This document shows, piece after piece, positions 11,634 through 35,157 of a DNA stretch of 64,000 nt (position 1 is its first letter; each line of letters begins with the position of its first letter). Position numbers and translations under genes: made by a program. The DNA is from a virus, in UHGV virus genome UHGV-0141439; one strand, given 5' to 3'. A model generated the notes under the pieces. That model was given only the letters and a program-made list of their open reading frames with translations, was not told the origin of the DNA and did no database searches.

Positions 11634-11650
11634 TGTTAGAAAACTAATTT
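11634..11650. promoter_or_regulatory. 17-bp operator-like site TGTTAGAAAACTAATTT
   Basis: Matches the window-wide consensus; overlaps the ref stop codon. Confidence 0.5.
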
Positions 11651-12222
11651 ATCAATTCAATCGCCATCTGATACAACGTCATTTCATCGGCATTGTGCCG
11701 CATGAAATCTGCTTTTCCGCCTATTTTTCCATCAGCATGAACAGGGACCAGCCAGGGATATTGTTCTCGGACCTCGGCTGGCGCTGCGTACTGGTGGTGC
11801 CATTTACACAAAGGGAGGACATATTTATGCGCGTTCTCTGCCGTTCTCCCGAAGATATGGTGCAGGGATACCACTGGGCTATGTTGCCCGTGAATATGGC
11901 AGGCAATGCAGGGGAGAGTACCGATAGCGGTCTGTATCCGGCGTTCATCGGCTGTGAGTGATCTGCCCTTCAGGCCGCGTGACGTGCGTGTTTTTTTGGG
12001 CGGAGCGGATACCGCTTTATCTTTTCTCCGCTGTTCATATTGCTTTGCTTTTTCAATTTTCTTTTGCCGATATTCAGGCGATGCGGCTTTTTCTCTCGCT
12101 CGCTGCTGCTGGCGTTGAGCTTGTTGAAGGCGCTTTGCCCTTTGTTCCTCTCGCCAGGCTGGGTCAGCCAATTTTTGCATGGCTTTTTGTCTCTGTTTCT
12201 CCCAATAACTCTGTTTCTGCAT
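11644..12222 (-). CDS. ref: Ref-like HNH endonuclease (recombination enhancement function)
   Basis: 192 aa; very basic N-terminal half; C-terminal Cys/His cluster CIACHIHGQH...HH...CKWHH. Operator pair lies upstream, as for P1 ref. Confidence 0.6.
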   Translation of the reverse strand: MQKQSYWEKQRQKAMQKLADPAWREEQRAKRLQQAQRQQQRAREKAASPEYRQKKIEKAKQYEQRRKDKAVSAPPKKTRTSRGLKGRSLTADERRIQTAIGTLPCIACHIHGQHSPVVSLHHIFGRTAENAHKYVLPLCKWHHQYAAPAEVREQYPWLVPVHADGKIGGKADFMRHNADEMTLYQMAIELIN

Positions 12223-22494: not shown

Positions 22495-22884
22495 ATGGGC
22501 TTCCCTTCTCCTGCGGCGGATTATGCAGAGAGCCGCATTTCTCTTGATCAGCAACTAATCAGACATCCTTCCGCGACCTACTTCATGCGGGCGGCAGACA
22601 GCCATCACCGTGAGGGAATATTGCAAGGTGCTTTGCTGGTGGTTGATTCCTCACTTACTCCGGTTGATGGTTCACTGCTTATATGCGCTATGGAGGGTGA
22701 ATATCGCATAAAGAGATACAGGAAGTATCCGCGCCAGCACCTGGAGGATTTAAGCACCGGGAAGAAAGAGGCGTTACCAGTAGATGACGATGGATACACG
22801 GGCAGTAATGCTGTTTTTGGTGTGATCACTCATGTCATCAATGATGCCCGAAGTGGGGAGTTTGATTATAGACCTGTGATTTAA
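22495..22884 (+). CDS. humD: UmuD'-like protein (HumD-type)
   Basis: Begins GFPSPAADY...HPSATYF, i.e. at the processed UmuD' N-terminus; Ser/Lys region retained. Confidence 0.75.
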   Translation: MGFPSPAADYAESRISLDQQLIRHPSATYFMRAADSHHREGILQGALLVVDSSLTPVDGSLLICAMEGEYRIKRYRKYPRQHLEDLSTGKKEALPVDDDGYTGSNAVFGVITHVINDARSGEFDYRPVI

Positions 22885-22897
22885 GGCGCATAAAGAA

Positions 22898-22925
22898 GCC
22901 CGCCAGACCAGGCGGGCTTTTTGTT
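22898..22925. terminator. Rho-independent terminator after humD
   Basis: GCCCGCC-AGACCA-GGCGGGC followed by TTTTTGTT. Confidence 0.65.
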
Positions 22926-22929
22926 GATA

Positions 22930-24024
22930 TCATTCAATGATTTTTTCGGCTGTCAGCCAGCTAATTTCGTGCCTGTCTTTCGGCGGTTTTAGCATGTGAG
23001 CATATTCAGCGACATGCTCCCACGGAATTGTTTTTGCCCACTCAACGATAGCATTGTGATCTGCAGTGAAGAGTGGAATAGTGTGCGATTTCAACCATTC
23101 TAATGTCGTGACGCCATGTTTTTTGGCGTGGTGCTGCGCATGATGCCGGGCTATCACTCGTAATGGCATTGTCCATTCACTACCATCAGGCATCGAAAAG
23201 CGCATTGTCTTCGGCATATCTGATTCAAGAACAGCCTCCCTAATACCAGGGAACTCACCAAGAATCATACGACGATAGTCATCACTATTTCGCCCGCCAT
23301 ACCTTTCGGCAAAATGATCAAGATATTCTTGGGTAATAAATGGTGAATCCTCCGCACTCAGCTTAATGGCTTTATATACACCACTCGGATTATCTTCAGC
23401 TAAAGCACGTCCATGATGTGAATCATAAAAAAAGCCTATTTCCTCTGGTGACGGAATTGAAGTGAGCAATATGCGTGAATCACCACTAGTCATGCTTGCC
23501 CACACAATGCTGTATGCCCGATCGCTGATATGTGCGGAATCCACAATAATGAATAAAAGATGGTCGGCGTAGTGACCTGCAATGCTATCTTCATAGTTAA
23601 GGCGGTAGTTACAAAAGCACATTCCCCAAAATTCATTGAACATCAGACCGCTATCACCGACCTTAAAATACTCAATGATAAAAGGTTGTTTTTTCAGCAA
23701 TGCCTCCCAACATTGCCACACATATGCAACAATTCCTCTTTTGCAAACATTTGATTTTGGATAAACAATTACTGTCCGGGAATCAGGATACATAATCGTA
23801 TAAAGGGTACTAATAACAGCAAGCACTTGCGGTCGTCCGATCCCATACGGAGTGGTGACAGTAGCTTTTGCATTATTGGGCTGTATAGCTTCAACAATTT
23901 GTTGTTGCTGGTGGCTTAAATCAATATCAAACAATTCTTTTGCTGCCAGTACCCAATTGTCTTTATATTTCTCCACCAGCGACAGCCAGCGCGGATCTTT
24001 ATAAATATTGCTCTTAGTCGCCAT
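22930..24024 (-). CDS. PacB paralogue: terminase-large-subunit-like ATPase domain with degenerate Walker motifs and a different His-rich C-terminus
   Basis: Collinear with PacB at 29172-30680 (DPRW, SHQQQ, HLLxI(V/L)D, FYDSHH, YGGR...GxFP); Walker A GHGTGKS is replaced by PYGIGRP and DEAS by DSAH. Start at Met98 of the track ORF. Confidence 0.5.
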   Translation of the reverse strand: MATKSNIYKDPRWLSLVEKYKDNWVLAAKELFDIDLSHQQQQIVEAIQPNNAKATVTTPYGIGRPQVLAVISTLYTIMYPDSRTVIVYPKSNVCKRGIVAYVWQCWEALLKKQPFIIEYFKVGDSGLMFNEFWGMCFCNYRLNYEDSIAGHYADHLLFIIVDSAHISDRAYSIVWASMTSGDSRILLTSIPSPEEIGFFYDSHHGRALAEDNPSGVYKAIKLSAEDSPFITQEYLDHFAERYGGRNSDDYRRMILGEFPGIREAVLESDMPKTMRFSMPDGSEWTMPLRVIARHHAQHHAKKHGVTTLEWLKSHTIPLFTADHNAIVEWAKTIPWEHVAEYAHMLKPPKDRHEISWLTAEKIIE

Positions 24025-24781
24025 CTGCCACTTCCTTAACTTCTTCTTTGGCCTGTTCTGCAATCGCCGCACGGCATTTCGCCCTGGCCGTAGCGATTGC
24101 TTCAGCACGCACATCATCAGGAATCGTTGACGTGATATACATATCCAGTTCTTCGGCGCGGAACACTGTTTGGTCCAGATATTCGCGTAGCATCCAGGTA
24201 AATTCGAAATCACACGCGATAATCTCTGCGCTACCTTCTGCACCATTTGGGAAATGAATAAAAGCCTGTTTAGCCAAACCGATAACACGACATGCGGTTG
24301 CCAAAACAGCGGCAACCAGGTTTACATTTTCACACGCTACGGGCTGATTAACGCCGGAGATTACTCCATTTAACTGTCGGTTATATGGAAGGTAGTTTGA
24401 GATGCGTTCTACGCGCCATGTGCCAGTCAGGCTGCCATTCTTAAAGATAATTGGTGTAACGGATAGCCCAAGCTCGCGTATAAGTCGTTGCGCTATAGCA
24501 GGATCATTAAACATGTCTAATGCTACACATTCGAAAGACTGTGCAAGGGTAAACAGTTCTTCCAGAGAGTAGTCTTTGCCCCTGGCGGTGATGTAACGAT
24601 GAACGCCGCTTTCTGCATCACTCCATATAGCTACGCCATGCTCTTCATTCAGCTCTTCATTAAAGCCGAGATACGTCATGATAGTACGTTCAATCGTGTC
24701 AAACGGCAGTGACATGTCGGCGTTAACAGCCACCAGCAGGCCATTACGCAAGCGGTATTGAATTGCTTTAGTATTTTCCAC
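24014..24781 (-). CDS. Hypothetical protein
   Basis: 255-aa ORF; overlaps the downstream start. Confidence 0.4.
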   Translation of the reverse strand: MENTKAIQYRLRNGLLVAVNADMSLPFDTIERTIMTYLGFNEELNEEHGVAIWSDAESGVHRYITARGKDYSLEELFTLAQSFECVALDMFNDPAIAQRLIRELGLSVTPIIFKNGSLTGTWRVERISNYLPYNRQLNGVISGVNQPVACENVNLVAAVLATACRVIGLAKQAFIHFPNGAEGSAEIIACDFEFTWMLREYLDQTVFRAEELDMYITSTIPDDVRAEAIATARAKCRAAIAEQAKEEVKEVADGD

Positions 24782-24787
24782 GTTAAA

Positions 24788-25252
24788 TCACTCCACTACA
24801 AACCAGTCACATGCCAGTAAGTCGCCTACAGAAGGCGCCCACGGAACAACTACACCTTGTGCATTTTTTAAGGCGAAATAAGCACCATACGGAACGAGAT
24901 CGCCGGGGAAATATCCCTTAATGGCTTCCATTCGTGCCGGGTACTGTCCTTCAGGAACCAGCCAGCAGAATTGGTTTTCGCCGTTCCACCCGCGCCGGGC
25001 AACTTTCTTGCCATCCTTCAGCCACATCAGCGCGTCAGAAAAGTCGGCTGCTTCAAGGTCGATTTCTTCTTGCTGGGTGGTGATGCCACCAGCAGAAATA
25101 GTTACGCTCCCGGTAAGATTAATCATCACGCCGTTGTCATCCGTAATGATGACCGTGGTTCCATTTTTGGAGGCGTCGTTAACCAGGCCATAGCGTTCCT
25201 CAGATGATTTGGGAAGGAACTTAAAAAGCTCTTTCGTTGCCATGTTATTCAT
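24788..25252 (-). CDS. DUF2829-domain protein (Tad2-like fold) with N-terminal extension
   Basis: C-terminal half ALMWLKDGKKVARRGWNG...VPWAPSVGDLLACDWFVVE matches the DUF2829 pattern as I recall it. Confidence 0.5.
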   Translation of the reverse strand: MNNMATKELFKFLPKSSEERYGLVNDASKNGTTVIITDDNGVMINLTGSVTISAGGITTQQEEIDLEAADFSDALMWLKDGKKVARRGWNGENQFCWLVPEGQYPARMEAIKGYFPGDLVPYGAYFALKNAQGVVVPWAPSVGDLLACDWFVVE

Positions 25253-25266
25253 AGTCTTTTCTCTGC

Positions 25267-25761
25267 TTATAACTTTTCGTACTGAAGCGGTGAACGCTTA
25301 ATTTCAAAGTGGCCTTCCGATGTGCTACCAAAGCCACCAGCGCCTCGCTCTGTTTCATCGAGTTCATCAACTTCTACCAGCGATACCGGTTCAACACGCT
25401 CAAAAATGCCTTGCATGACCGCCATTCCTGGCTTGAGGCAAACGCCTTCACCACCGGGATCTGTAATCAGTTTTGCCATGATTTCACCGCGATAATCGGA
25501 GTCGATAATTCCTACGCAGTTAGCCAGGCGAGTATGTTTTTTGCAGCCCAATCCGGAACGCGGATAGAGTTTCAGACACCAGCCGGGCGGGATCTCCATA
25601 GCCAGTCCGGTGTACACCCACCAGCTTGAGGAAATTGCACCATTGCTATCGACACATGGTTTTATTTCAACAGCCTCAAAATCCATCGCCGCCGATCCGG
25701 AGGTGGCATAAGCTGGAAGTTTTGCTGCCGGATGTAGGCGTTTCACTTTTACGTAAATCAT
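25267..25761 (-). CDS. dut: dUTP diphosphatase (dUTPase)
   Basis: Motifs RSGLG, GIIDSDYRGE and GGFGSTS. Confidence 0.7.
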   Translation of the reverse strand: MIYVKVKRLHPAAKLPAYATSGSAAMDFEAVEIKPCVDSNGAISSSWWVYTGLAMEIPPGWCLKLYPRSGLGCKKHTRLANCVGIIDSDYRGEIMAKLITDPGGEGVCLKPGMAVMQGIFERVEPVSLVEVDELDETERGAGGFGSTSEGHFEIKRSPLQYEKL

Positions 25762-26234
25762 TGTTTTTTAGCTCTCTGCGTGAATGTGTAAACCCGACGT
25801 TTGATATGTGGAACGGTAGGAACAGGAAGACAGGAACTTTCAATAACTCCTTGCTCCTCCAGCGATCGCACCGCCCGCAAGAACTGCGACGTGTCGCCGC
25901 CAAACTGGCGGGCATAGGTGCTGCCGTTATGAAGTATTTGAGCTATTACCCGAGCTTTTGTCTGGCTGTCACGATATGCGAATAGCCGCACGGCCTCTTC
26001 TGGCGCAATCGCTAACTGATAGCCTTTCCCGGCACGGTGTCGAATGAATCCATGCGCCAGTAGGTTTTTGAGTTCGTTACGAGTGCGAACAGATCCGTAA
26101 CCCAGGAAGTGTGGATTGATAACGACTGGCTTAAACCATTCCGTAGGTGCTTTAGCTAATAGAGCTAACAGCTTCCCGGATAATTCTGGATAGGAAGACG
26201 GGTAACAATTCAGAGATGGGTAATAAGTTTTCAC
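25758..26234 (-). CDS. Hypothetical protein
   Basis: 158-aa ORF, 4-nt overlap with dut. Confidence 0.4.
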   Translation of the reverse strand: MKTYYPSLNCYPSSYPELSGKLLALLAKAPTEWFKPVVINPHFLGYGSVRTRNELKNLLAHGFIRHRAGKGYQLAIAPEEAVRLFAYRDSQTKARVIAQILHNGSTYARQFGGDTSQFLRAVRSLEEQGVIESSCLPVPTVPHIKRRVYTFTQRAKKQ

Positions 26235-26575
26235 CGACGCCCCCTTGCAGGATATCGACCGGCATTAGTATCCGGTGCAATAAAGCCGGTAGTGGGGCGA
26301 GTGAAAGCGAGATTAATCTTCTCGACCATAGTGCGATAATTTTCCTGATAGTGGGCCAGGAGTTTTTCGGCGGCAATGATGGTTACTTTCCGGACGTAGC
26401 TTTCTGCTTCCTCCAGATTTCGCCAGTTTTTTTCGAGGGTAAACACAGGGACGGCCTCAAGCCCGGTCATGATGCCGAACACAACGACAGCATGACTGTT
26501 CTTAACACCAGCGGCGAAGGTTACGGTGTAACCATCCACCTTGAAGCGTCTTGATTCCGTGATTTGACTCTGCAA
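26231..26575 (-). CDS. Hypothetical protein
   Basis: 114-aa ORF. Confidence 0.4.
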   Translation of the reverse strand: MQSQITESRRFKVDGYTVTFAAGVKNSHAVVVFGIMTGLEAVPVFTLEKNWRNLEEAESYVRKVTIIAAEKLLAHYQENYRTMVEKINLAFTRPTTGFIAPDTNAGRYPARGRR

Positions 26576-26633
26576 AGCACCCTCCTAAATAGGCGAGGGT
26601 ACTTTACAGCAAAGACGTTAATCTAAAAAGATG

Positions 26634-26650
26634 TGTTAGAAATTTAATTT
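26634..26650. promoter_or_regulatory. 17-bp operator-like site TGTTAGAAATTTAATTT
   Basis: Exact consensus; overlaps the cre stop. Confidence 0.5.
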
Positions 26651-27677
26651 ACGAATCCATCAGGCGGCTATTAGCCCCCACAGACACGCCGCCACGGCGA
26701 AGATACCGCATAAGTGTTTCCGGTTTCTTCCAGGTTCCTTCCTGCATGATCTCCACCATAGACACCTGCTTTTCAGCCATATCAATAGCGGCCCCGACGC
26801 GTGCACTATGCCCGGTCCACGTCCGGTATCTTCCTTTGTTTGGCGTAGCATCTCTTTTATTCAGCAACACCCAGGCGTCGCTGAATATTTTCTCCATTGC
26901 AGGTGCAGTAAGGGGCGTTGTCGTGATCCTGGCCTTATTGCTACGGTGTATCGGCGGGAACAGCACTGCGTCAGGATGTTCGCGAAGCCCGGAAACATCC
27001 AGCCAGTCATTCAGCACAGCGGTAGTGCGACGGGAAAGCACCTTATCAAGCCCGGCGGCGGTCGTTATTGTCTTCGTGTGTGAAATATGTAGCGTGACAG
27101 TGTCACCTGTTTGGTCCAGATCTCCTACACGAATACGCGAGATTTCCGACATACGCATCAGCGTATTGTATGCAACAAAGAGAAAAGCCCGGTTGCGCAG
27201 GTCCACCAGCCGTTCTGACCTGGACAACAGGACGTCGAGCAGTTTCAGATCGTCCCACCGCAGCGGTATAGCCTGGCCTGTTCGTTCGCCTTTTTCAGTT
27301 GCCGCTTCGCGCCGGATGCGCCGCATAGCCAGAGAAACACTTTTATCATCCGAAAGTGGCGGAAGGCCACAATGCGAAAGCAGCATGTTCAGCATGGCGT
27401 AGTGCTTATCAATGGTGGTCGAAGCCAGATCGGCATCATGCAGCTGAAGAAAATACTCGCGGGCCATTTCTGGTGAGATCGGAAACCAGGCAAGCTGGCG
27501 AGCGTGACACCAGCGCGCCCAGGAATGAAACACCAAACGGAGGTCGCGCAGAGTATTCGGCGCATAAGCTCCCTGGTCATTCATGAACCGCATAAAGTTT
27601 TCTGCGGCTTCCTGGTACTCTTTGCCAATGTTGCGCAGAAAACCACCGGAACTGCCAGAGATAATTAATTCACTCAT
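26649..27677 (-). CDS. cre: Cre-type tyrosine recombinase
   Basis: 342 aa, collinear with P1 Cre (WFP..PE..R(E/D)YLL, VSL(A/V)MRRIR, AYNTL(M/L)R..EI.RIRV.D, W(T/S)GHSARVGAA.DMA, EIMQ.G.W); lox-like site upstream. Confidence 0.85.
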   Translation of the reverse strand: MSELIISGSSGGFLRNIGKEYQEAAENFMRFMNDQGAYAPNTLRDLRLVFHSWARWCHARQLAWFPISPEMAREYFLQLHDADLASTTIDKHYAMLNMLLSHCGLPPLSDDKSVSLAMRRIRREAATEKGERTGQAIPLRWDDLKLLDVLLSRSERLVDLRNRAFLFVAYNTLMRMSEISRIRVGDLDQTGDTVTLHISHTKTITTAAGLDKVLSRRTTAVLNDWLDVSGLREHPDAVLFPPIHRSNKARITTTPLTAPAMEKIFSDAWVLLNKRDATPNKGRYRTWTGHSARVGAAIDMAEKQVSMVEIMQEGTWKKPETLMRYLRRGGVSVGANSRLMDS

Positions 27678-27828
27678 GAAACTATTTAACCTCTATATAC
27701 AGATGACGCTACGCGAAAAATATAAAAATGACAGGGTAGCTATAAGTTAATTTTCAAGATTCAAGCCTTTGATTCGATGCACGTATTTTCAGTGATGTCA
27801 ATACTGATCATCTACCCATGATTATAGC

Positions 27829-27862
27829 CTAACTTTAAATAATGCCAATTATCTAAAGTTAG
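27829..27862. other. lox-like site: 13-bp inverted repeats around an 8-bp spacer (CTAACTTTAAATA-ATGCCAAT-TATCTAAAGTTAG)
   Basis: Read directly; 12 of 13 arm positions are symmetric; about 150 bp upstream of cre; same 34-bp architecture as loxP but different sequence. Confidence 0.6.
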
Positions 27863-28062: not shown

Positions 28063-29100
28063 ATGAGTAAGAAGTCGATCGAGAAAGAGTACAAACGGTT
28101 CCTGCAAACCGCTGAACGGTGGAAAGAGCTGGTGGTCGCAAACTCTGTTTTCCATGATACCAGTTATTCCGGCGAGGAATTCCGCCATGTTGCACTAACA
28201 CATGATCAGAATGTGCTAGAAGAAGCTGAAAAGTGCCTCACAGAATGGAAAGCCTTTGTTGACTTGTGCCGTAACGCTGACGGCAAAGCGTCTAACATTG
28301 TTGAGTCTGTATATTCTCCGATCCCATTCATTATCGAGGACACAAATCAAAGCACGCATATTGTTGTGCAAAGCGCGACCACCACCCGCTCATTTACGCG
28401 CGAAAATCTGCTCAAAAAATATGATGCAATTATAAAGAAAAGCCTGAAAAACAAGATATTTTCGCAGATTGTTGGTGCACTTGAAGAAGAGCGCCGTTTT
28501 TTCGCATCAGAACCTGAAGGGGAAGTTTACCGGGCGCGCAAAGATGGATACACAGATGTAGTGCTTACAACAAACATTGAAGGCAGCAATGCTCTGTCAC
28601 GATTCAGGGTAGGCGCACACGGAGCCTTAGTGTTCGCAAAACTTCCGAACACCACAGTGCCCGTTGTTAATAATGTCGGCGAACGTCGCAGCATTACTAT
28701 TTATTCTGGGGTTGAGTCGATACCTTGCGGCCTGCTTGGTGACTTTAGTCTCTATCGCGTTCGCGATCTGGAGAAACACCAACCAAGCTATGTTGCGAAG
28801 TCATACATCTTGCGAAACATCGACATCCGCAATGAGAGCTTAAAGAACAAATCAGCCAAAATGCTTGAGGAAGCCGATCCGGCTATTCGCCATATCATTG
28901 AGCGTAAAATACAGACAGCACGCGAAGCGATGGCGAGACTGAATAAAATGGATCTGGAGTTGTTAGACGTAATGATGACATCCGGAGATGACCTGACAGG
29001 CATAAAACTGACAGACGCGCGGAAAAGATACGGTAAAACCATAGAAGAACGTTACGGGTTCACTTTCTCCCAAACACAGCACGCCGCTAAACTCTGGTAA
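28063..29100 (+). CDS. Hypothetical 345-aa protein; candidate C1-type immunity repressor by position only
   Basis: Convergent with pacB, next to lox and cre (the place c1 occupies in P1), with an operator-like site over its promoter; no sequence motif recognised. Confidence 0.4.
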   Translation: MSKKSIEKEYKRFLQTAERWKELVVANSVFHDTSYSGEEFRHVALTHDQNVLEEAEKCLTEWKAFVDLCRNADGKASNIVESVYSPIPFIIEDTNQSTHIVVQSATTTRSFTRENLLKKYDAIIKKSLKNKIFSQIVGALEEERRFFASEPEGEVYRARKDGYTDVVLTTNIEGSNALSRFRVGAHGALVFAKLPNTTVPVVNNVGERRSITIYSGVESIPCGLLGDFSLYRVRDLEKHQPSYVAKSYILRNIDIRNESLKNKSAKMLEEADPAIRHIIERKIQTAREAMARLNKMDLELLDVMMTSGDDLTGIKLTDARKRYGKTIEERYGFTFSQTQHAAKLW

Positions 29101-29171: not shown

Positions 29172-30680
29172 TCAAATATCCAGATCTGGCATTTCTACAT
29201 CTGCAAGAACCTGATCGCGGAAGGTAGCCATTTCAGCGCCGATATCTTCATTAGCAGGAACATAGTCCACCAGCATTGTAAAGCAGTAGGTATCCCATCG
29301 GTCAGGTGATTTGATGTTCAGCTTTTGCCGCATGTGCTCCTTGCGCATCATCGCCATCTTCCCTTCTTCATTAAGTAAAAAGGGGATTTTTGACGCTTGC
29401 TCTGCCGTTTTAGGGTCGCTGTCTATTCGCATACGACCTGACTTTATGGCATCACGAGCCATAATATTTGCGTAGGCACGCTGGTTAACAAAACGCTCCT
29501 TGTCTTTGTTCGAAAACATGGGTTTCCCCCACCGAATCCGTACCGGATTAGCCCCACGGCGCACCAGCTGCGCACAGGTATCTGAACCAAAACCGTCTGC
29601 GTCAACCGCGATTGTAATATTCGGGTATTTATCCGGCGTGCATTCGTTGTATATAAAGTCAGCAAAAGCCAGCGGGTCCATAGTCCCTGGCATTTCCATT
29701 ACCTTAAAGTTAACAACACGCCGCTTTTCCCGGTGACCAGACACTTTACAGATATTAAGAACTGACTTGTCTCGCCCGTTACCAACGTCAGCAGTAGCCA
29801 CCCATCCCCAGTTTTTCTCCAACAACACCTTGCGCCGCGCAGCGCGATCGCATTCATCACGACCAAGCAAATAGCCGTTAATCTCCCGAGGAAACTGACC
29901 AAGAACCTTGACCATGTACTCAATAGAATCGCGCCCGCCATATTCTAGGAGTTTCTGCCTGATGAATTGTGGTGTGACGAACGGTGATTCTTCTGAGTTA
30001 AGAACAATTGCTGTCCAGATCCCTTTCGGGTTGTCTGGGGTTTTAGCTTGAGAATGGTGCGAATCGTAGAAATAACCACTTGGCCTTGTTGGCTGGGATA
30101 GCATCAACATTCGGTTATCTTCTTCAGTCAGAGCGCCAGTCATTACGCCGATCGCTTTATCAGATATACCTGATGCTTCATCCAGAATTAGAAGCAAATG
30201 TGCCGCGTGCTCCCCCGCCAGAGCTTCTTCGTTACCGAGTCGATAGCCTTTGCAGAGAACTTCCCAGATCCCCTTTCGAGAGCGTTCATAAAACATGGTG
30301 TCAGACAGGACAAAATAGGTCTGTAACCACCCATGACGCTTAACGGCATTCGCCCAATACTGTTTAACGTATTTGAATACACCTGTCTTAACCTGACCTA
30401 TTTTGTTAGCAACAATGATGACACGGGCATCGGGGAACAGAATCAAATAAATCAGCAACAACATAGCCGTTAGCGACGATTTCCCTGTACCGTGACCAGA
30501 GGTAACAGTGGTTCTGCTCCCTTTTTGCTGTACGGACTGGATAATCTCCTGCTGCTGGTGGGAGGGAAACATCCCGAATATATCAACAACAGCCTGGGTA
30601 AAGTTGTAGCGGTATTTGATTACCATATCGCGCCAGCGTGGATCGCTGGTGACGCATTTAATCTTGCGCCCACCAGCCAT
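29172..30680 (-). CDS. pacB: Terminase large subunit (PacB-type)
   Basis: 502 aa; Walker A SGHGTGKSS, Walker B LLILDEAS; follows the pacA-like gene. Confidence 0.75.
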   Translation of the reverse strand: MAGGRKIKCVTSDPRWRDMVIKYRYNFTQAVVDIFGMFPSHQQQEIIQSVQQKGSRTTVTSGHGTGKSSLTAMLLLIYLILFPDARVIIVANKIGQVKTGVFKYVKQYWANAVKRHGWLQTYFVLSDTMFYERSRKGIWEVLCKGYRLGNEEALAGEHAAHLLLILDEASGISDKAIGVMTGALTEEDNRMLMLSQPTRPSGYFYDSHHSQAKTPDNPKGIWTAIVLNSEESPFVTPQFIRQKLLEYGGRDSIEYMVKVLGQFPREINGYLLGRDECDRAARRKVLLEKNWGWVATADVGNGRDKSVLNICKVSGHREKRRVVNFKVMEMPGTMDPLAFADFIYNECTPDKYPNITIAVDADGFGSDTCAQLVRRGANPVRIRWGKPMFSNKDKERFVNQRAYANIMARDAIKSGRMRIDSDPKTAEQASKIPFLLNEEGKMAMMRKEHMRQKLNIKSPDRWDTYCFTMLVDYVPANEDIGAEMATFRDQVLADVEMPDLDI

Positions 30681-32044
30681 TAGTCATCCTCCGGCGGTTC
30701 TATCGCAATATCATCATCTCCGGCGTCATACCCTGCATCTGATGCATCATAATCACCGTAAATTTCAGCCGTTGCCGAAGGGTCAATGTCCAACTCTTCA
30801 TCGTTGGCCTCGAATTCCCCAGCCTTACGCTCGCCATTGTGGTCGTAATCTCCGCACCCCAGATCTTCAACAATGGTTGCCACATCCGCCCGGCGCTCTG
30901 CCAGCCATTGCGGATGGTTAGCCTGAAGCGATGCAAACTCCTTCGCTTCTTTGTCCAGCTGTTCATCATCAACATCATTGATGTCAGAAACTGGAGGTTC
31001 GAGAAGAGTGATAGCTTTCGCCGCGCGCGCCGCGAGGATAGCCGGGACACTGACACCCTGACGCTCGATGTATTCAGCAACACCGATATCGTCCAGCTCC
31101 TCGCGCTCACGCATACGTATAGCGGCGGCGATAACTCTGGCTGCGCGTGCGTCAGCGCCAATGCGATATTCAATCTCTTTGCCACGCTGTTCGGCCTGTA
31201 GGCGTGCTAATTCGAGTTTTTCTCTGGCCTCGGCCTCTCTGAATGCTTGCTGGCGAGCACCCTGACGAAGTTTTTCATCACCCTGTCGCAGCTTTTGTTC
31301 GGACTGATATATCGCTGCCAACCTACTGATAAAATCGTTCATGTAGTAGGCCGCGTCACTGATTAGACCGAGAAGTCGCTGCCCAGGGTGCATTCCTTCT
31401 GGCTGTTCATCACCCAGGGCGTCTATCTCCGCCTGTAGGCGTTCGGCCTCCTGATCAACAATGCTTTGGTACTGAAGTGCGCGTTCTTGCGCCATTTGAA
31501 TTGCTAACCGCAGGTGCTCTTCTGCGCCGTTCTTCATCATGTCGCGAGCCACACTCGTAGTGGGCAACGTGGCACGCTGCACAGCACCGCCAGGGATCAT
31601 TGCTGAAGATCCCTCGATTTTTGAGGCGCATTTATCTTCGGTGGGGATCATTTTCGCCATTTTTTCGCGCAATGATCTCCTGACAGATTCTTTTATCTCA
31701 TTGTTATTATTTGCATTATTTTCATGATCCGAAGTTTTCTTTCTCGGCATACTTCGGAAAGAACCTGTGCCCTGCGAATTGTCAATTTCTGTAAATTTTG
31801 TTGTTTCTGTACCCTCTTCTGGTCTTTTTTTTGCTCTTCCTGCCCGTTTTTTTTGAGGTGATTTGGTGCTTTTTTTTGTAGTCTTCACCTGCGACCGCAC
31901 CTCATTTTTTTTCATATTGAGATGCTTTCTGGCGGTATTGAAGCTAAGGTCGTGTTGCTCGCAGTATTCCTTTACGGTGATCCCTTTTTCTTCACGCAAC
32001 GCTATAAATTTGGCGCGGTGCTCTTCCCAATTAACCAGACTCAT
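30680..32044 (-). CDS. pacA: Terminase small subunit (PacA-type) with acidic C-terminus
   Basis: 454 aa; N-terminal HTH-like segment; stop overlaps the pacB start; contains a GATC cluster. Confidence 0.55.
   Translation of the reverse strand: MSLVNWEEHRAKFIALREEKGITVKEYCEQHDLSFNTARKHLNMKKNEVRSQVKTTKKSTKSPQKKRAGRAKKRPEEGTETTKFTEIDNSQGTGSFRSMPRKKTSDHENNANNNNEIKESVRRSLREKMAKMIPTEDKCASKIEGSSAMIPGGAVQRATLPTTSVARDMMKNGAEEHLRLAIQMAQERALQYQSIVDQEAERLQAEIDALGDEQPEGMHPGQRLLGLISDAAYYMNDFISRLAAIYQSEQKLRQGDEKLRQGARQQAFREAEAREKLELARLQAEQRGKEIEYRIGADARAARVIAAAIRMREREELDDIGVAEYIERQGVSVPAILAARAAKAITLLEPPVSDINDVDDEQLDKEAKEFASLQANHPQWLAERRADVATIVEDLGCGDYDHNGERKAGEFEANDEELDIDPSATAEIYGDYDASDAGYDAGDDDIAIEPPEDD
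31595..31729. other. Cluster of five GATC sites (TGATC(C/T) repeats in both orientations) inside pacA: candidate pac site
   Basis: GATC at 31595, 31608, 31646, 31674 and 31726; GGGATCATT occurs twice. Confidence 0.4.
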
Positions 32045-33962: not shown

Positions 33963-34038
33963 TGGTGGCCCCTACCGGACTTGAACCGGTGACCGTGCGA
34001 TTATGAGTCGCCAGCTCTAACCACTGAGCTAAAGGGCC
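33963..34038 (-). tRNA. tRNA-Ile2/Met type, anticodon CAU
   Basis: Hand-folded 76-nt cloverleaf with encoded CCA; closely resembles E. coli ileX. Confidence 0.8.
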
Positions 34039-34208
34039 AGATTACTGTTAATTCCGCTTACGCTTTTTGCCAGAACCGCGTAAGGCTTTTGCCGCTTGCT
34101 CGATCCCATATGCAACCACCAGCAGAAATAAAAATGTCCAACCAGGGTTCTTATCGGCAAAGGCCCAAAAATCCATCACTTGCAGCTACCTTTTAAGACA
34201 AAACGCCA

Positions 34209-34223
34209 TTGCTGTTAGATTGC
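34209..34223. other. Hairpin CCTGG-TGCCT-CCAGG
   Basis: Second member of the covarying hairpin set. Confidence 0.4.
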
Positions 34224-34450
34224 GGTGCCTGGTGCCTCCAGGTGACGTTAACCAGTTAACAATTAACGCCGGGATGTTTGATTTAACCACTAAGGAGGAT
34301 TGTTTTAACTGTTCCGCGTGCGCTTAGCCGCATTCACCGCAATGGTAAGAGCACTTGGCTGGCTGGGCGGCGATGACGCCTGTACGCATTTGGTGATCCG
34401 GTTCTGCTTCCGGCATTCGCTTAATTAGCCAAATACTCTTAACGTTGCGC

Positions 34451-34537
34451 TGGCGGAGAGTAATGGAATCGAACCATCATCGCTTGCGCAATGGGACGGT
34501 TTTCAAGACCGCTTGAGCACCATGCTCCCTACTCTCC
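34451..34537 (-). tRNA. tRNA-Ser, anticodon UGA (class II, long variable arm), tentative
   Basis: 87 nt; GGAGAGT/ACTCTCC acceptor stem, loop CUUGAAA, GGTTCGATTCC T-arm, encoded CCA; D-arm spacing is atypical. Confidence 0.55.
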
Positions 34538-34682
34538 GGCCGTTGTGGTGGCCGGTACTGAATCTCCGGCATACGGTGCAGCCAATTAGGACTACGGACG
34601 ATCACCGCTCGCGAAAGGGAAGATTTGCGGCCGCATTTCCCTAACATCCAAGAAAGCTATCGCATCAGTCTGCGAATCCACC

Positions 34683-34774
34683 ACAACGTTGAGAACACTG
34701 GTTGTCACGCTGCAACGCAACATTTATTCGTAGATTGGGATATGACCCCGTTACGTCAGTGTTCTCAACGTTGT
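34683..34774. repeat. Perfect 18-bp inverted repeat ACAACGTTGAGAACACTG with 56-bp spacer
   Basis: Arms at 34683-34700 and 34757-34774. Confidence 0.6.
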
Positions 34775-35002
34775 AGTACCGGTTACGGTTCCGGCCAGGC
34801 CTCTTCCTCAACGGGGTATTCTCCATACGGACTACCGTTTATTGGTCGTTCCTGCGGTTTATGTTGTGAAGCCAGATGCTTATCTTCTGGTTGCTTCAAA
34901 GAGCTGCACTTCATCACAACGGTAAGGGTACTTCGTAGGGATTCGAACCCTCTGCCAAGCACGGCGATCTCCGACGTCGCAAAATACCCTTACCTGTTGT
35001 GT

Positions 35003-35078
35003 TGGTGCCGATTAACGGACTCGAACCGCTGACATCCTGCTTACAAGGCAGGCGCTCTACCAACTGAGCTAAACCGGC
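35003..35078 (-). tRNA. tRNA-Thr, anticodon UGU
   Basis: Canonical 76-nt cloverleaf, loop CUUGUAA, encoded CCA. Confidence 0.8.
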
Positions 35079-35080
35079 AT

Positions 35081-35157
35081 TGGCGATGGTGGGTGGATTC
35101 GAACCACCGACCGACAGCTTAGAAGGCTGCTGCTCTATCCTACTGAGCTACACCATC
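35081..35157 (-). tRNA. tRNA-Arg, anticodon UCU
   Basis: Canonical 77-nt cloverleaf, loop CUUCUAA, encoded CCA. Confidence 0.8.

Follow-up and report, generated by a model that had tools for sequence, protein, structure and literature searches.

A non-catalytic, nuclease-less paralogue of the PacB terminase ATPase domain as a modular accessory gene of P1/D6-type phage-plasmids

We have analysed here a degenerate paralogue of the terminase large subunit PacB that is encoded by the virus genome UHGV-0141439, in a stretch of 64,000 nucleotides (the window) that belongs to the P1 family of phage-plasmids and is of the D6 type. The paralogue gene lies at 22930–24024 on the minus strand and, as defined from the open reading frame (ORF) list, BLASTP and the phrog_5902 profile, encodes a 364-residue protein in which a PacB-N pseudo-ATPase is joined to a small C-terminal domain (PHROG 5902). 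Residues 4–363 match positions 2–358 of the 359 in phrog_5902 (E 1.1e-164), the protein corresponds at 99% identity to P0001 (364 residues), a cluster with 392 member sequences, and its N-terminal domain is 100% identical to the copy on the E. coli plasmid NZ_CP034790. The ATG at 24024–24022 overlaps the stop codon of the upstream isaA gene by 11 nt, and a Shine-Dalgarno sequence, AAGGAAG (24031–24037, minus strand), precedes it with a 6-nt spacing. Two longer versions of the protein were rejected. A TTG-initiated ORF of 461 residues (22930–24315, minus strand) is an ORF-listing artefact, the homologues beginning at the methionine at 24024, and the 438-residue database entry P0002, 'MAG TPA: Terminase large subunit', is a start-site mis-call that runs upstream through isaA in another frame. 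The genuine PacB of the window is 502 residues long (29172–30680, minus strand) and has intact Walker A, Walker B and SQPT motifs and an intact nuclease half.

The paralogue is collinear with PacB, as the original prediction had proposed, although the stretch is about 260 rather than about 280 residues long: BLASTP aligns residues 7–259 with PacB 10–264, with 96 identities in 258 positions (37%), 62% positives and an E value of 6e-62. The pseudo-ATPase domain (residues 1–261; 23242–24024, minus strand), which has the TerL ATPase fold, was also said to have its Walker A lysine and Walker B acidic residues replaced, and the alignments bear this out. The Walker A/P-loop segment TPYGIGRPQ (residues 58–66; 23827–23853, minus strand) stands against SGHGTGKSS in PacB and retains the glycines, but the lysine has become arginine and the serine proline. 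In the Walker B segment LLFIIVDSAH (residues 156–165; 23530–23559, minus strand), opposite LLLILDEASG in PacB, the aspartate is replaced by valine and the catalytic glutamate by aspartate, and LTSIPSP (residues 187–193; 23446–23466, minus strand) is a degenerate version of the SQPT motif, MLSQPTR in PacB. The nuclease half is gone, in that PacB 265–502 gives no alignment with the paralogue, and the point of replacement is the LG.FP hinge at residues 261/262, the former ATPase-nuclease border. The isoelectric point (pI) of the N-terminal domain is 5.8, as against 9.3 for the PacB ATPase domain. Judged by these motifs, the alignments show a non-catalytic, nuclease-less copy of the PacB ATPase domain, and because the Walker A lysine and serine, the Walker B aspartate and the SQPT motif are all lost, no ATP hydrolysis, DNA translocation or DNA cutting would be expected of it.

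The predicted structure is consistent with this assignment. An AlphaFold2 (AF2) model made from an 82-sequence alignment has a mean predicted local distance difference test score (pLDDT) of 89.6, with values above 90 across most of the ATPase-like domain, and the degenerate motifs fall at the canonical sites, on strand 53–57, loop 58–63 and helix 64–78 for the P-loop and on strand 155–161 for Walker B. The best Foldseek matches in the PDB are the TerL ATPase domains of P74-26, Sf6, T4 gp17, D6E and HK97 (probability 1.00). Pairwise alignment and structure prediction, which had been suggested as checks, thus both point to a terminase-type domain, with significant sequence similarity and with catalytic residues that are not intact. 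Scans of the paralogue against Pfam, NCBIfam and PADLOC gave a sub-threshold match to DUF5076 as their sole result, neither the paralogue nor IsaA matched any defence-system profile in PADLOC-DB v2 at E <= 0.1, and the pseudo-ATPase profile had no match among PDB sequences.

Relatives were gathered with HMMER, in an exhaustive search through 1.84 billion representatives, and with two word-indexed searches, one of which, a profile search that took in up to 8000 candidates, added few members. The short relatives have lengths of about 250–270 or of 364–366 residues, and the full-length PacB-type terminases of about 500. The motifs were compared in an alignment of 14 short paralogues and 17 full-length terminases, and the degeneracy predicted for the window gene extends to the whole clade. 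All 17 terminases have SG.GTGK[ST] and DE, and 16 have SQPT (P0036 has SQFT), whereas none of the 14 short paralogues has the Walker A lysine at the GK position or the Walker B aspartate, and SQPT is lost in 13 (P0271 retains it). A neighbour-joining tree, rooted at its midpoint, sets the short paralogues apart from the enzymes in one clade, and the dead clade is ancient and monophyletic. Its invariant positions include W13, L16, Y20, W24, A27, Q39/Q40, G61, G63, W106 and F120, and also F199-Y200, H203, P228, G243-G244, Y250-R251 and F258.

Pairwise Nei-Gojobori estimates give the ATPase-like domain a ratio of non-synonymous to synonymous substitution (dN/dS) of 0.17–0.31 at dS values from 0.46 to more than 2, as against 0.02–0.06 for PacB in the same pairs. 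The paralogue is thus held by purifying selection, although it is far less constrained than the enzyme, and because these values signal maintenance we regard it as a pseudoenzyme and not as a pseudogene. Truncated copies occur in several E. coli plasmids, namely P0003 (263 residues), P0011, P0018, P0273 (98–116 residues) and also P0272; where they match they are 93–100% identical to the window paralogue, and the contigs that carry them reach about 93 kb and mostly measure about 90 kb, so the gene is evidently sometimes inactivated. For P0009, a search for viral loci returned none.

The original prediction had described the nuclease half as swapped for a histidine-rich tail. The nuclease is indeed absent, but what follows the hinge is a folded domain of about 100 residues that is histidine-rich just in this lineage. 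It comprises residues 262–364 plus the stop codon (22930–23241, minus strand), was delimited with a hidden Markov model (HMM) and AF2, and is modelled as a beta-hairpin, four helices and one strand (pLDDT 86.9). The lineage-specific histidine-rich helix, ARHHAQHHAKKH, is encoded at 23116–23151 (minus strand), and in the window lineage 10 of the 102 residues of the domain are histidines, as against 1–5 in homologues. The HMM of a stand-alone family of about 100 residues matches the window domain at E 5.6e-29 (hmmsearch), and the domain also matches the C-terminal part of phrog_17928 (E 4.8e-14). The consensus of the family is K.L.VTMPDGS.W.VPV..IA.NRA..YA.EFGGD...SL.EDT.PLF..D.YEIEDWAANNMNW.DV...A..V.....DYQEGWVNG, and all nine of its invariant residues (P24, A29, A33, T52, F56, W66, A67, W72 and W93 in A5 numbering) are present in the window. 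The stand-alone proteins are acidic (pI 4.3–4.8) and the window domain is near-neutral. The small-domain profile reaches 1089 clusters, in none of which a Pfam domain was found, and neither a Pfam entry nor a relative in the PDB or among solved structures was found for the family.

The genes for stand-alone small-domain proteins lie in early accessory contexts of several kinds. P0164 is placed between YfdP/YfdQ/DUF2303 and xis-int in lambdoid prophages, another adjoins RecT/YqaJ in a Rep3/ParA phage-plasmid, gp35 of Cronobacter phage JK004 is encoded 3' of DnaB, and others are found within arrays of small ORFs. In Xanthomonas phage Tenjo (L015 2891–4306) the small domain forms the C-terminus of a 471-residue protein whose gene sits between DUF2303 and a recombinase/exonuclease/SSB module; the N-terminus of that protein is weakly DUF1351-like, and its GenBank label 'DUF820' is unsupported by Pfam. 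Stand-alone dead ATPases terminate where the C-terminal domain begins in the window paralogue, and in Klebsiella michiganensis the protein P0025 is a fusion in the reverse order, with the small domain N-terminal and the dead ATPase after it. The P0025 gene (L004 8001–10384) is cut by a Tn3-family transposase gene and has Ref and AbiH genes nearby. These architectures show that the small domain was, to all appearances, joined to the dead ATPase twice independently and in both orders, which argues for a joint action of the two modules. No stand-alone small-domain gene was found within about 0.5–10 kb on either side of the stand-alone pseudo-ATPases of L009, L010, L016 and L017.

In the window the paralogue is the last gene of a minus-strand operon with the order dre, orf114, orf158, dUTPase, Tad2-like, isaA, paralogue, with gaps of at most 73 bp and starts and stops that mostly overlap, so that the reported association with DUF2829, dUTPase and cre stands. 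The upstream genes from dre to the Tad2-like gene span 24788–27677 (minus strand; ORF list and family scans), and include those for the Dre/Cre-type recombinase (dre/cre; 26649–27677, minus strand, from the same sources), the dUTPase (25267–25761, minus strand) and the Tad2-like/DUF2829 protein (PF11195, E 2e-22; 24788–25252, minus strand). The isaA homologue (phrog_2326; 24014–24781, minus strand) stands between the last of these and the paralogue. A sigma-70-like promoter with 11 of 12 matches, 5' of dre (27821–27848, minus strand), is the probable operon promoter; a second, weaker match (9 of 12) at 22956–22929 overlaps the paralogue stop codon, and a terminator-like hairpin with a weak consensus match lies 17 nt past that stop (22898–22913, minus strand). 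The paralogue is probably expressed from the dre (cre) operon along with the Tad2-like anti-Thoeris gene, and the same layout is seen in other D6-type contigs. Beyond the operon are the HumD gene (22495–22884, plus strand), a C1-type repressor gene (28063–29100, plus strand) and pacA (30680–32044, minus strand), which adjoins pacB; the paralogue is about 5 kb from pacAB and c1. Portal, DarA, DarB and ddrB-like genes are also encoded in the window, as is a cluster of four tRNA genes (33963–35157, minus strand; Met-CAT, Ser-TGA, Thr-TGT and Arg-TCT).

IsaA is conserved in both P1- and D6-type plasmids and is acidic (pI 4.7), and no relative was found in Pfam, NCBIfam, PADLOC or the PDB. We considered it as a PacA-like small terminase, but it is unrelated to PacA. 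It is translationally coupled to whichever variable gene comes next. P1-type plasmids such as MH422554 have isaA and a paralogue of 52% identity in the interval from ssb to the hxr-ddrB-ddrA-darA anti-restriction operon, a place occupied in P1 itself by isaA-IS1-isaB; that P1 IsaB could be a remnant of the paralogue is ruled out by the lack of any similarity between the two proteins. More distant members have other partners. In L016 and L017 (L016 7336–8792; IMG/VR, a distant cre-bearing phage-plasmid), the paralogue is 38% identical, of the P0012 type and stand-alone, and the dead ATPase gene overlaps by one base the stop of a gene for Ref, a RecA-dependent nuclease (PF16786). This adjacency is not general, the Ref homologue of the window being 12 kb off at 11644–12222 (minus strand). 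In the metagenomic contigs L010 (8506–10274) and L009 (8592–10792), stand-alone dead ATPases are found in long same-strand arrays that hold Rrf2, DUF5417, ParE-like and TerB genes, the L010 copy directly after a radical SAM gene. The partner upstream of the paralogue therefore varies between IsaA, Ref, a radical SAM protein and a 91-residue ORF, and the distant members sit in arrays of small accessory genes, outside packaging modules.

The distribution of the gene is patchy. The 5.7 kb round the paralogue are 96% identical to phage D6, but across just 75% of their length, and neither P1 nor D6 has a copy; D6 has orf109-phd-doc-pdcA in its place (window 22885–24100 versus L001 3471–4971). The sister contig L011 holds the paralogue plus phd-doc. 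The differing contents of D6, L011 and the window mark the humD-isaA interval as a swap site for accessory modules. Among 754 PacB-positive PLSDB plasmids the fused paralogue is present in 166 (22%), 44 of them of D6 type and about 120 of P1 type. P1 can do without isaA (PMC10695390), and in P1-like plasmids the surroundings of that gene are a known variable region (PMC6906374, PMC9603915). The paralogue is thus a dispensable and modular gene that lies among accessory genes, and we hold the descriptive part of this account, a family of dead PacB-ATPase paralogues that is accessory and modular, with high confidence.

Comparison with L011 shows that the gene is itself a mosaic. A sliding window of nucleotide identity gives 94–99% to about 24100, 47–80% for 24100–23242 and 93–99% from 23241, and delimits an allele-swapped cassette at 23242–24100 (minus strand) between flanks of 93–99%. 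The 23241/23242 breakpoint falls exactly on the junction between the ATPase-like and C-terminal domains. At the protein level the ATPase-like domain is 54% identical between the window and L011, and the C-terminal domain 97%, as against 97.8% for PacB, 99.4% for Dre, 100% for orf114, 98.7% for orf158, 95.7% for Dut, 98% for IsaA and 96.9% for HumD. Synonymous divergence is high within the cassette (dS 1.35) and low in the flanks (0.12–0.21), which argues for the exchange of old alleles and not for local hypermutation. A further contig, L013, carries a window-like allele (75%) beside a PacB that is just 78% identical, and lacks the C-terminal domain. The alleles and the PacB identities are thus uncoupled in L011 and L013, which argues that the dead domain does not track the resident terminase, and the paralogue is about equally far (33–37% identity) from every PacB group. 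We infer that the partner which sets the specificity of the paralogue varies, and that it is not the resident PacB. The operon has just one further hypervariable gene, the Tad2-like one, 67.5% identical to its L011 counterpart at the protein level and 58% to that of L013, with products of 154, 233 and 214 residues, and it looks like a second allele-swapped cassette of anti-defence type.

These properties suggest a model in which the paralogue serves as a terminase mimic that binds and does nothing else. The gene goes back to an ancient duplication of a PacB-type terminase of which the ATPase domain alone was kept; the Walker A lysine and serine, the Walker B aspartate and SQPT were lost afterwards, and in the E. 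coli lineage a small and usually acidic early-phage domain is joined on where the hinge to the nuclease had been. With no enzymatic capacity left to it, the protein must presumably act by binding, and it would offer a surface like that of the terminase to a partner that varies and is not resident. The likeliest candidate would be a host immune sensor for the TerL ATPase fold (Avs1–3, Upx). The paralogue would then inhibit such a sensor or act as a decoy for it, the fused small domain being the part that blocks or serves as effector, and without its ATP site it would be unable to trigger the sensor productively.

A conflict role of this kind, as mimic or decoy for host sensors of the TerL ATPase fold, is the reading that we rank highest, although our preference is a tentative one. 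It is ranked so because Avs2 and Upx bind this domain, the TerL ATPase domain being their epitope (bioRxiv 10.64898/2026.04.30.721860; PMC11564622), and because other phages keep TerL-ATPase-like accessory proteins (T4 vs.8, Ksap1 and Ksap2) for which anti-defence has been suggested. An anti-defence reading also fits in that the only other hypervariable gene of the operon belongs to a Pfam-defined anti-defence family, and we count for it the position of the paralogue beside the anti-restriction operon in P1-type plasmids and the occurrence of the small domain in early accessory arrays. The idea of a decoy, already raised in the original prediction, appears compatible with all of the data. Avs2 uses terminase-bound ATP (bioRxiv 10.64898/2026.04.30.721860), and to judge from its P-loop the paralogue probably cannot hold ATP in that manner. 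A more specific version has the paralogue mimic the terminase as a pathogen-associated molecular pattern (PAMP) and fill the pocket of an Avs1–3 or Upx sensor without triggering it, the small domain and the loss of the ATP site blocking productive oligomerisation and the swapped N-domain cassette reflecting an arms race with diverse host sensors; we regard this version as rather improbable.

Several considerations weigh against the decoy model. The partner is purely hypothetical, no inhibitor of Avs or Upx is known to act through mimicry of the terminase, and the TerL-like accessory proteins described so far activate Avs2 and do not block it (bioRxiv 10.64898/2026.04.30.721860). Q40 and the P-loop glycines are still invariant in the paralogue clade, and nucleotide binding may therefore persist. 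Allele swapping can arise in any accessory hot spot, of which the isaA region is an example. The timing of expression is read solely from gene packing and one consensus promoter, and when the window was scanned for the C1-operator and late-promoter patterns of P1, no informative match came up. Lastly, the ssb, ref and cre neighbours, together with the recombination contexts of the small domain, would fit a role in DNA metabolism equally well.

Such a role, in which the dead motor would be a scaffold that binds DNA or protein and would be linked by the small domain to recombination or replication proteins, is improbable on balance but has much in its neighbourhood to commend it. The paralogue follows ssb-isaA in the P1-type plasmids, overlaps the Ref stop in L016 and L017, adjoins Ref in L004 and lies within the cre/dre operon in the D6-type plasmids, and the small domain keeps company with DUF2303, a recombinase, an exonuclease and SSB (Tenjo), with RecT/YqaJ, with DnaB and with YfdQ/xis-int. 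However, early regions mix recombination and anti-defence genes, which makes neighbourhood weak evidence, the upstream partner is not conserved, and the acidity of both the N-terminal domain and the stand-alone small domains is unlike that of a DNA binder. The swapped cassette, moreover, is left unexplained.

We consider it unlikely that the paralogue is a dominant-negative terminase poison in conflicts between elements, which, made by the resident plasmid prophage, would bind PacA, PacB or the portal when another P1/D6-like phage superinfects (or a satellite hijacks them) and so prevent pac cleavage or assembly of the motor. The N-terminal three-helix region and the motifs FYDSHH, SAEDSP and YGGRxS..YR..LG.FP are common to PacB, so interfaces with packaging proteins may persist, and a gene that is catalytically dead yet selected, patchy and allele-variable resembles exclusion genes, which often are so. 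The operon with cre would suit a lysogen function: P1 cre is expressed in lysogens according to Sternberg 1986, as cited in PMC10695390, and we infer the same for dre by extension. A poison must nevertheless spare the resident terminase and should co-vary with PacA and PacB, but alleles 54% identical stand beside PacBs 97.8% identical, one allele type accompanies PacBs that are 78% identical, and with its uniform distance from all PacB groups the paralogue is no close mimic of any rival.

Regulation of the phage's own packaging, the first of the roles suggested in the original prediction, is weakened further and is quite unlikely. Here the paralogue would titrate PacA or cap PacB oligomers and so time or limit pac cleavage, for example to shield the plasmid prophage from a leaky pacase. 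It is a PacB paralogue that has non-catalytic motifs in common with the enzyme, and in the window it is close to pacAB and c1. But P1 and D6 both package normally without the gene, which is likewise missing from about 78% of PacB-type plasmids, its P1-type copies lie far from pacAB between ssb and hxr, distant members are outside packaging modules, and it does not co-vary with PacB. An obligatory role as packaging regulator is unlikely in particular, because the gene is accessory and its N-terminal domain is allele-swapped against a constant PacB. A decaying relic without function, to which the missing catalytic residues and the truncated copies might point, is very improbable given intact ORFs in hundreds of sequences and in lineages 35–40% identical, a dN/dS of 0.17–0.31 at dS values that reach above 1, invariant non-catalytic positions, a confidently predicted fold and a translationally coupled start.

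Phage-plasmids of the P1 and D6 types are workhorses of genetics and occur commonly in E. coli and Salmonella of clinical and livestock origin, and about a fifth of those sequenced hold the paralogue, usually mislabelled as 'terminase large subunit' or 'hypothetical'. Recognition of a pseudoenzyme corrects the annotation and defines a clean family, the dead ATPase with or without the small domain, and the fused domain points to a very large, uncharacterised family of early phage proteins. The sharply bounded swapped cassette is a natural experiment that locates the specificity of the protein. The family also ties in with the current question of why phages retain terminase-ATPase-like proteins, such as vs.8 and Ksap1/2, that are visible to immune sensors. 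If PAMP mimicry were true, the paralogue would be the first anti-defence protein to mimic a conserved structural or enzymatic epitope of phages, and this might explain the retention of vs.8- or Ksap-like proteins in other phages.

The closest known system is PacB itself, with which the paralogue has in common 37% identity over the ATPase domain, the fold, the N-terminal helices, the Q-motif glutamine, the P-loop glycines and the motifs from FYDSHH to YGGRxS..YR..LG.FP. It differs in lacking the Walker A lysine and serine, the Walker B aspartate, SQPT and the nuclease domain, and in being apart from pacA, patchy, dispensable and 5–15 times faster at non-synonymous sites. PHROG 5902 and the GenBank entry AXF39147.1 (MH422554; 52% identity) belong to the same family; the PHROG 5902 entries have no functional description and are labelled 'hypothetical protein' or 'terminase large subunit', and on the motifs described here the latter label is wrong in the enzymatic sense. 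The stand-alone small proteins (the C-terminal part of phrog_17928, P0164 and JK004 gp35) are homologous to the C-terminal domain, although the window version is fused to a dead ATPase, histidine-rich and near-neutral.

Among accessory proteins, Ksap1 and Ksap2, two small proteins of phages, are built on a TerL-ATPase-like core and trigger both KpAvs2 and EcAvs2 (PMC11564622); like the paralogue they are lineage-restricted, dispensable and similar to the terminase ATPase core, and an anti-defence role has been speculated for them (PMC11564622). T4 vs.8 is an uncharacterised ATPase-like paralogue of the gp17 ATPase domain that activates EcAvs2 (bioRxiv 10.64898/2026.04.30.721860), and it resembles the present protein in that it is accessory, duplicates the TerL ATPase domain of its own phage as a stand-alone protein, lacks the nuclease and is encoded outside the packaging module. 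By its description, however, vs.8 retains Walker A and B (bioRxiv 10.64898/2026.04.30.721860) whereas the present family is dead, and it is an independent duplication in the gp17 lineage that has no fused small domain. A literature search for inactive or paralogous terminases found no paper describing the family reported here. A stand-alone paralogue of the terminase ATPase domain thus has one recent precedent in T4 vs.8, with its Walker motifs kept, and what is new here is that the copy is catalytically dead, is swapped like a cassette and has a small domain of an uncharacterised family fused to it.

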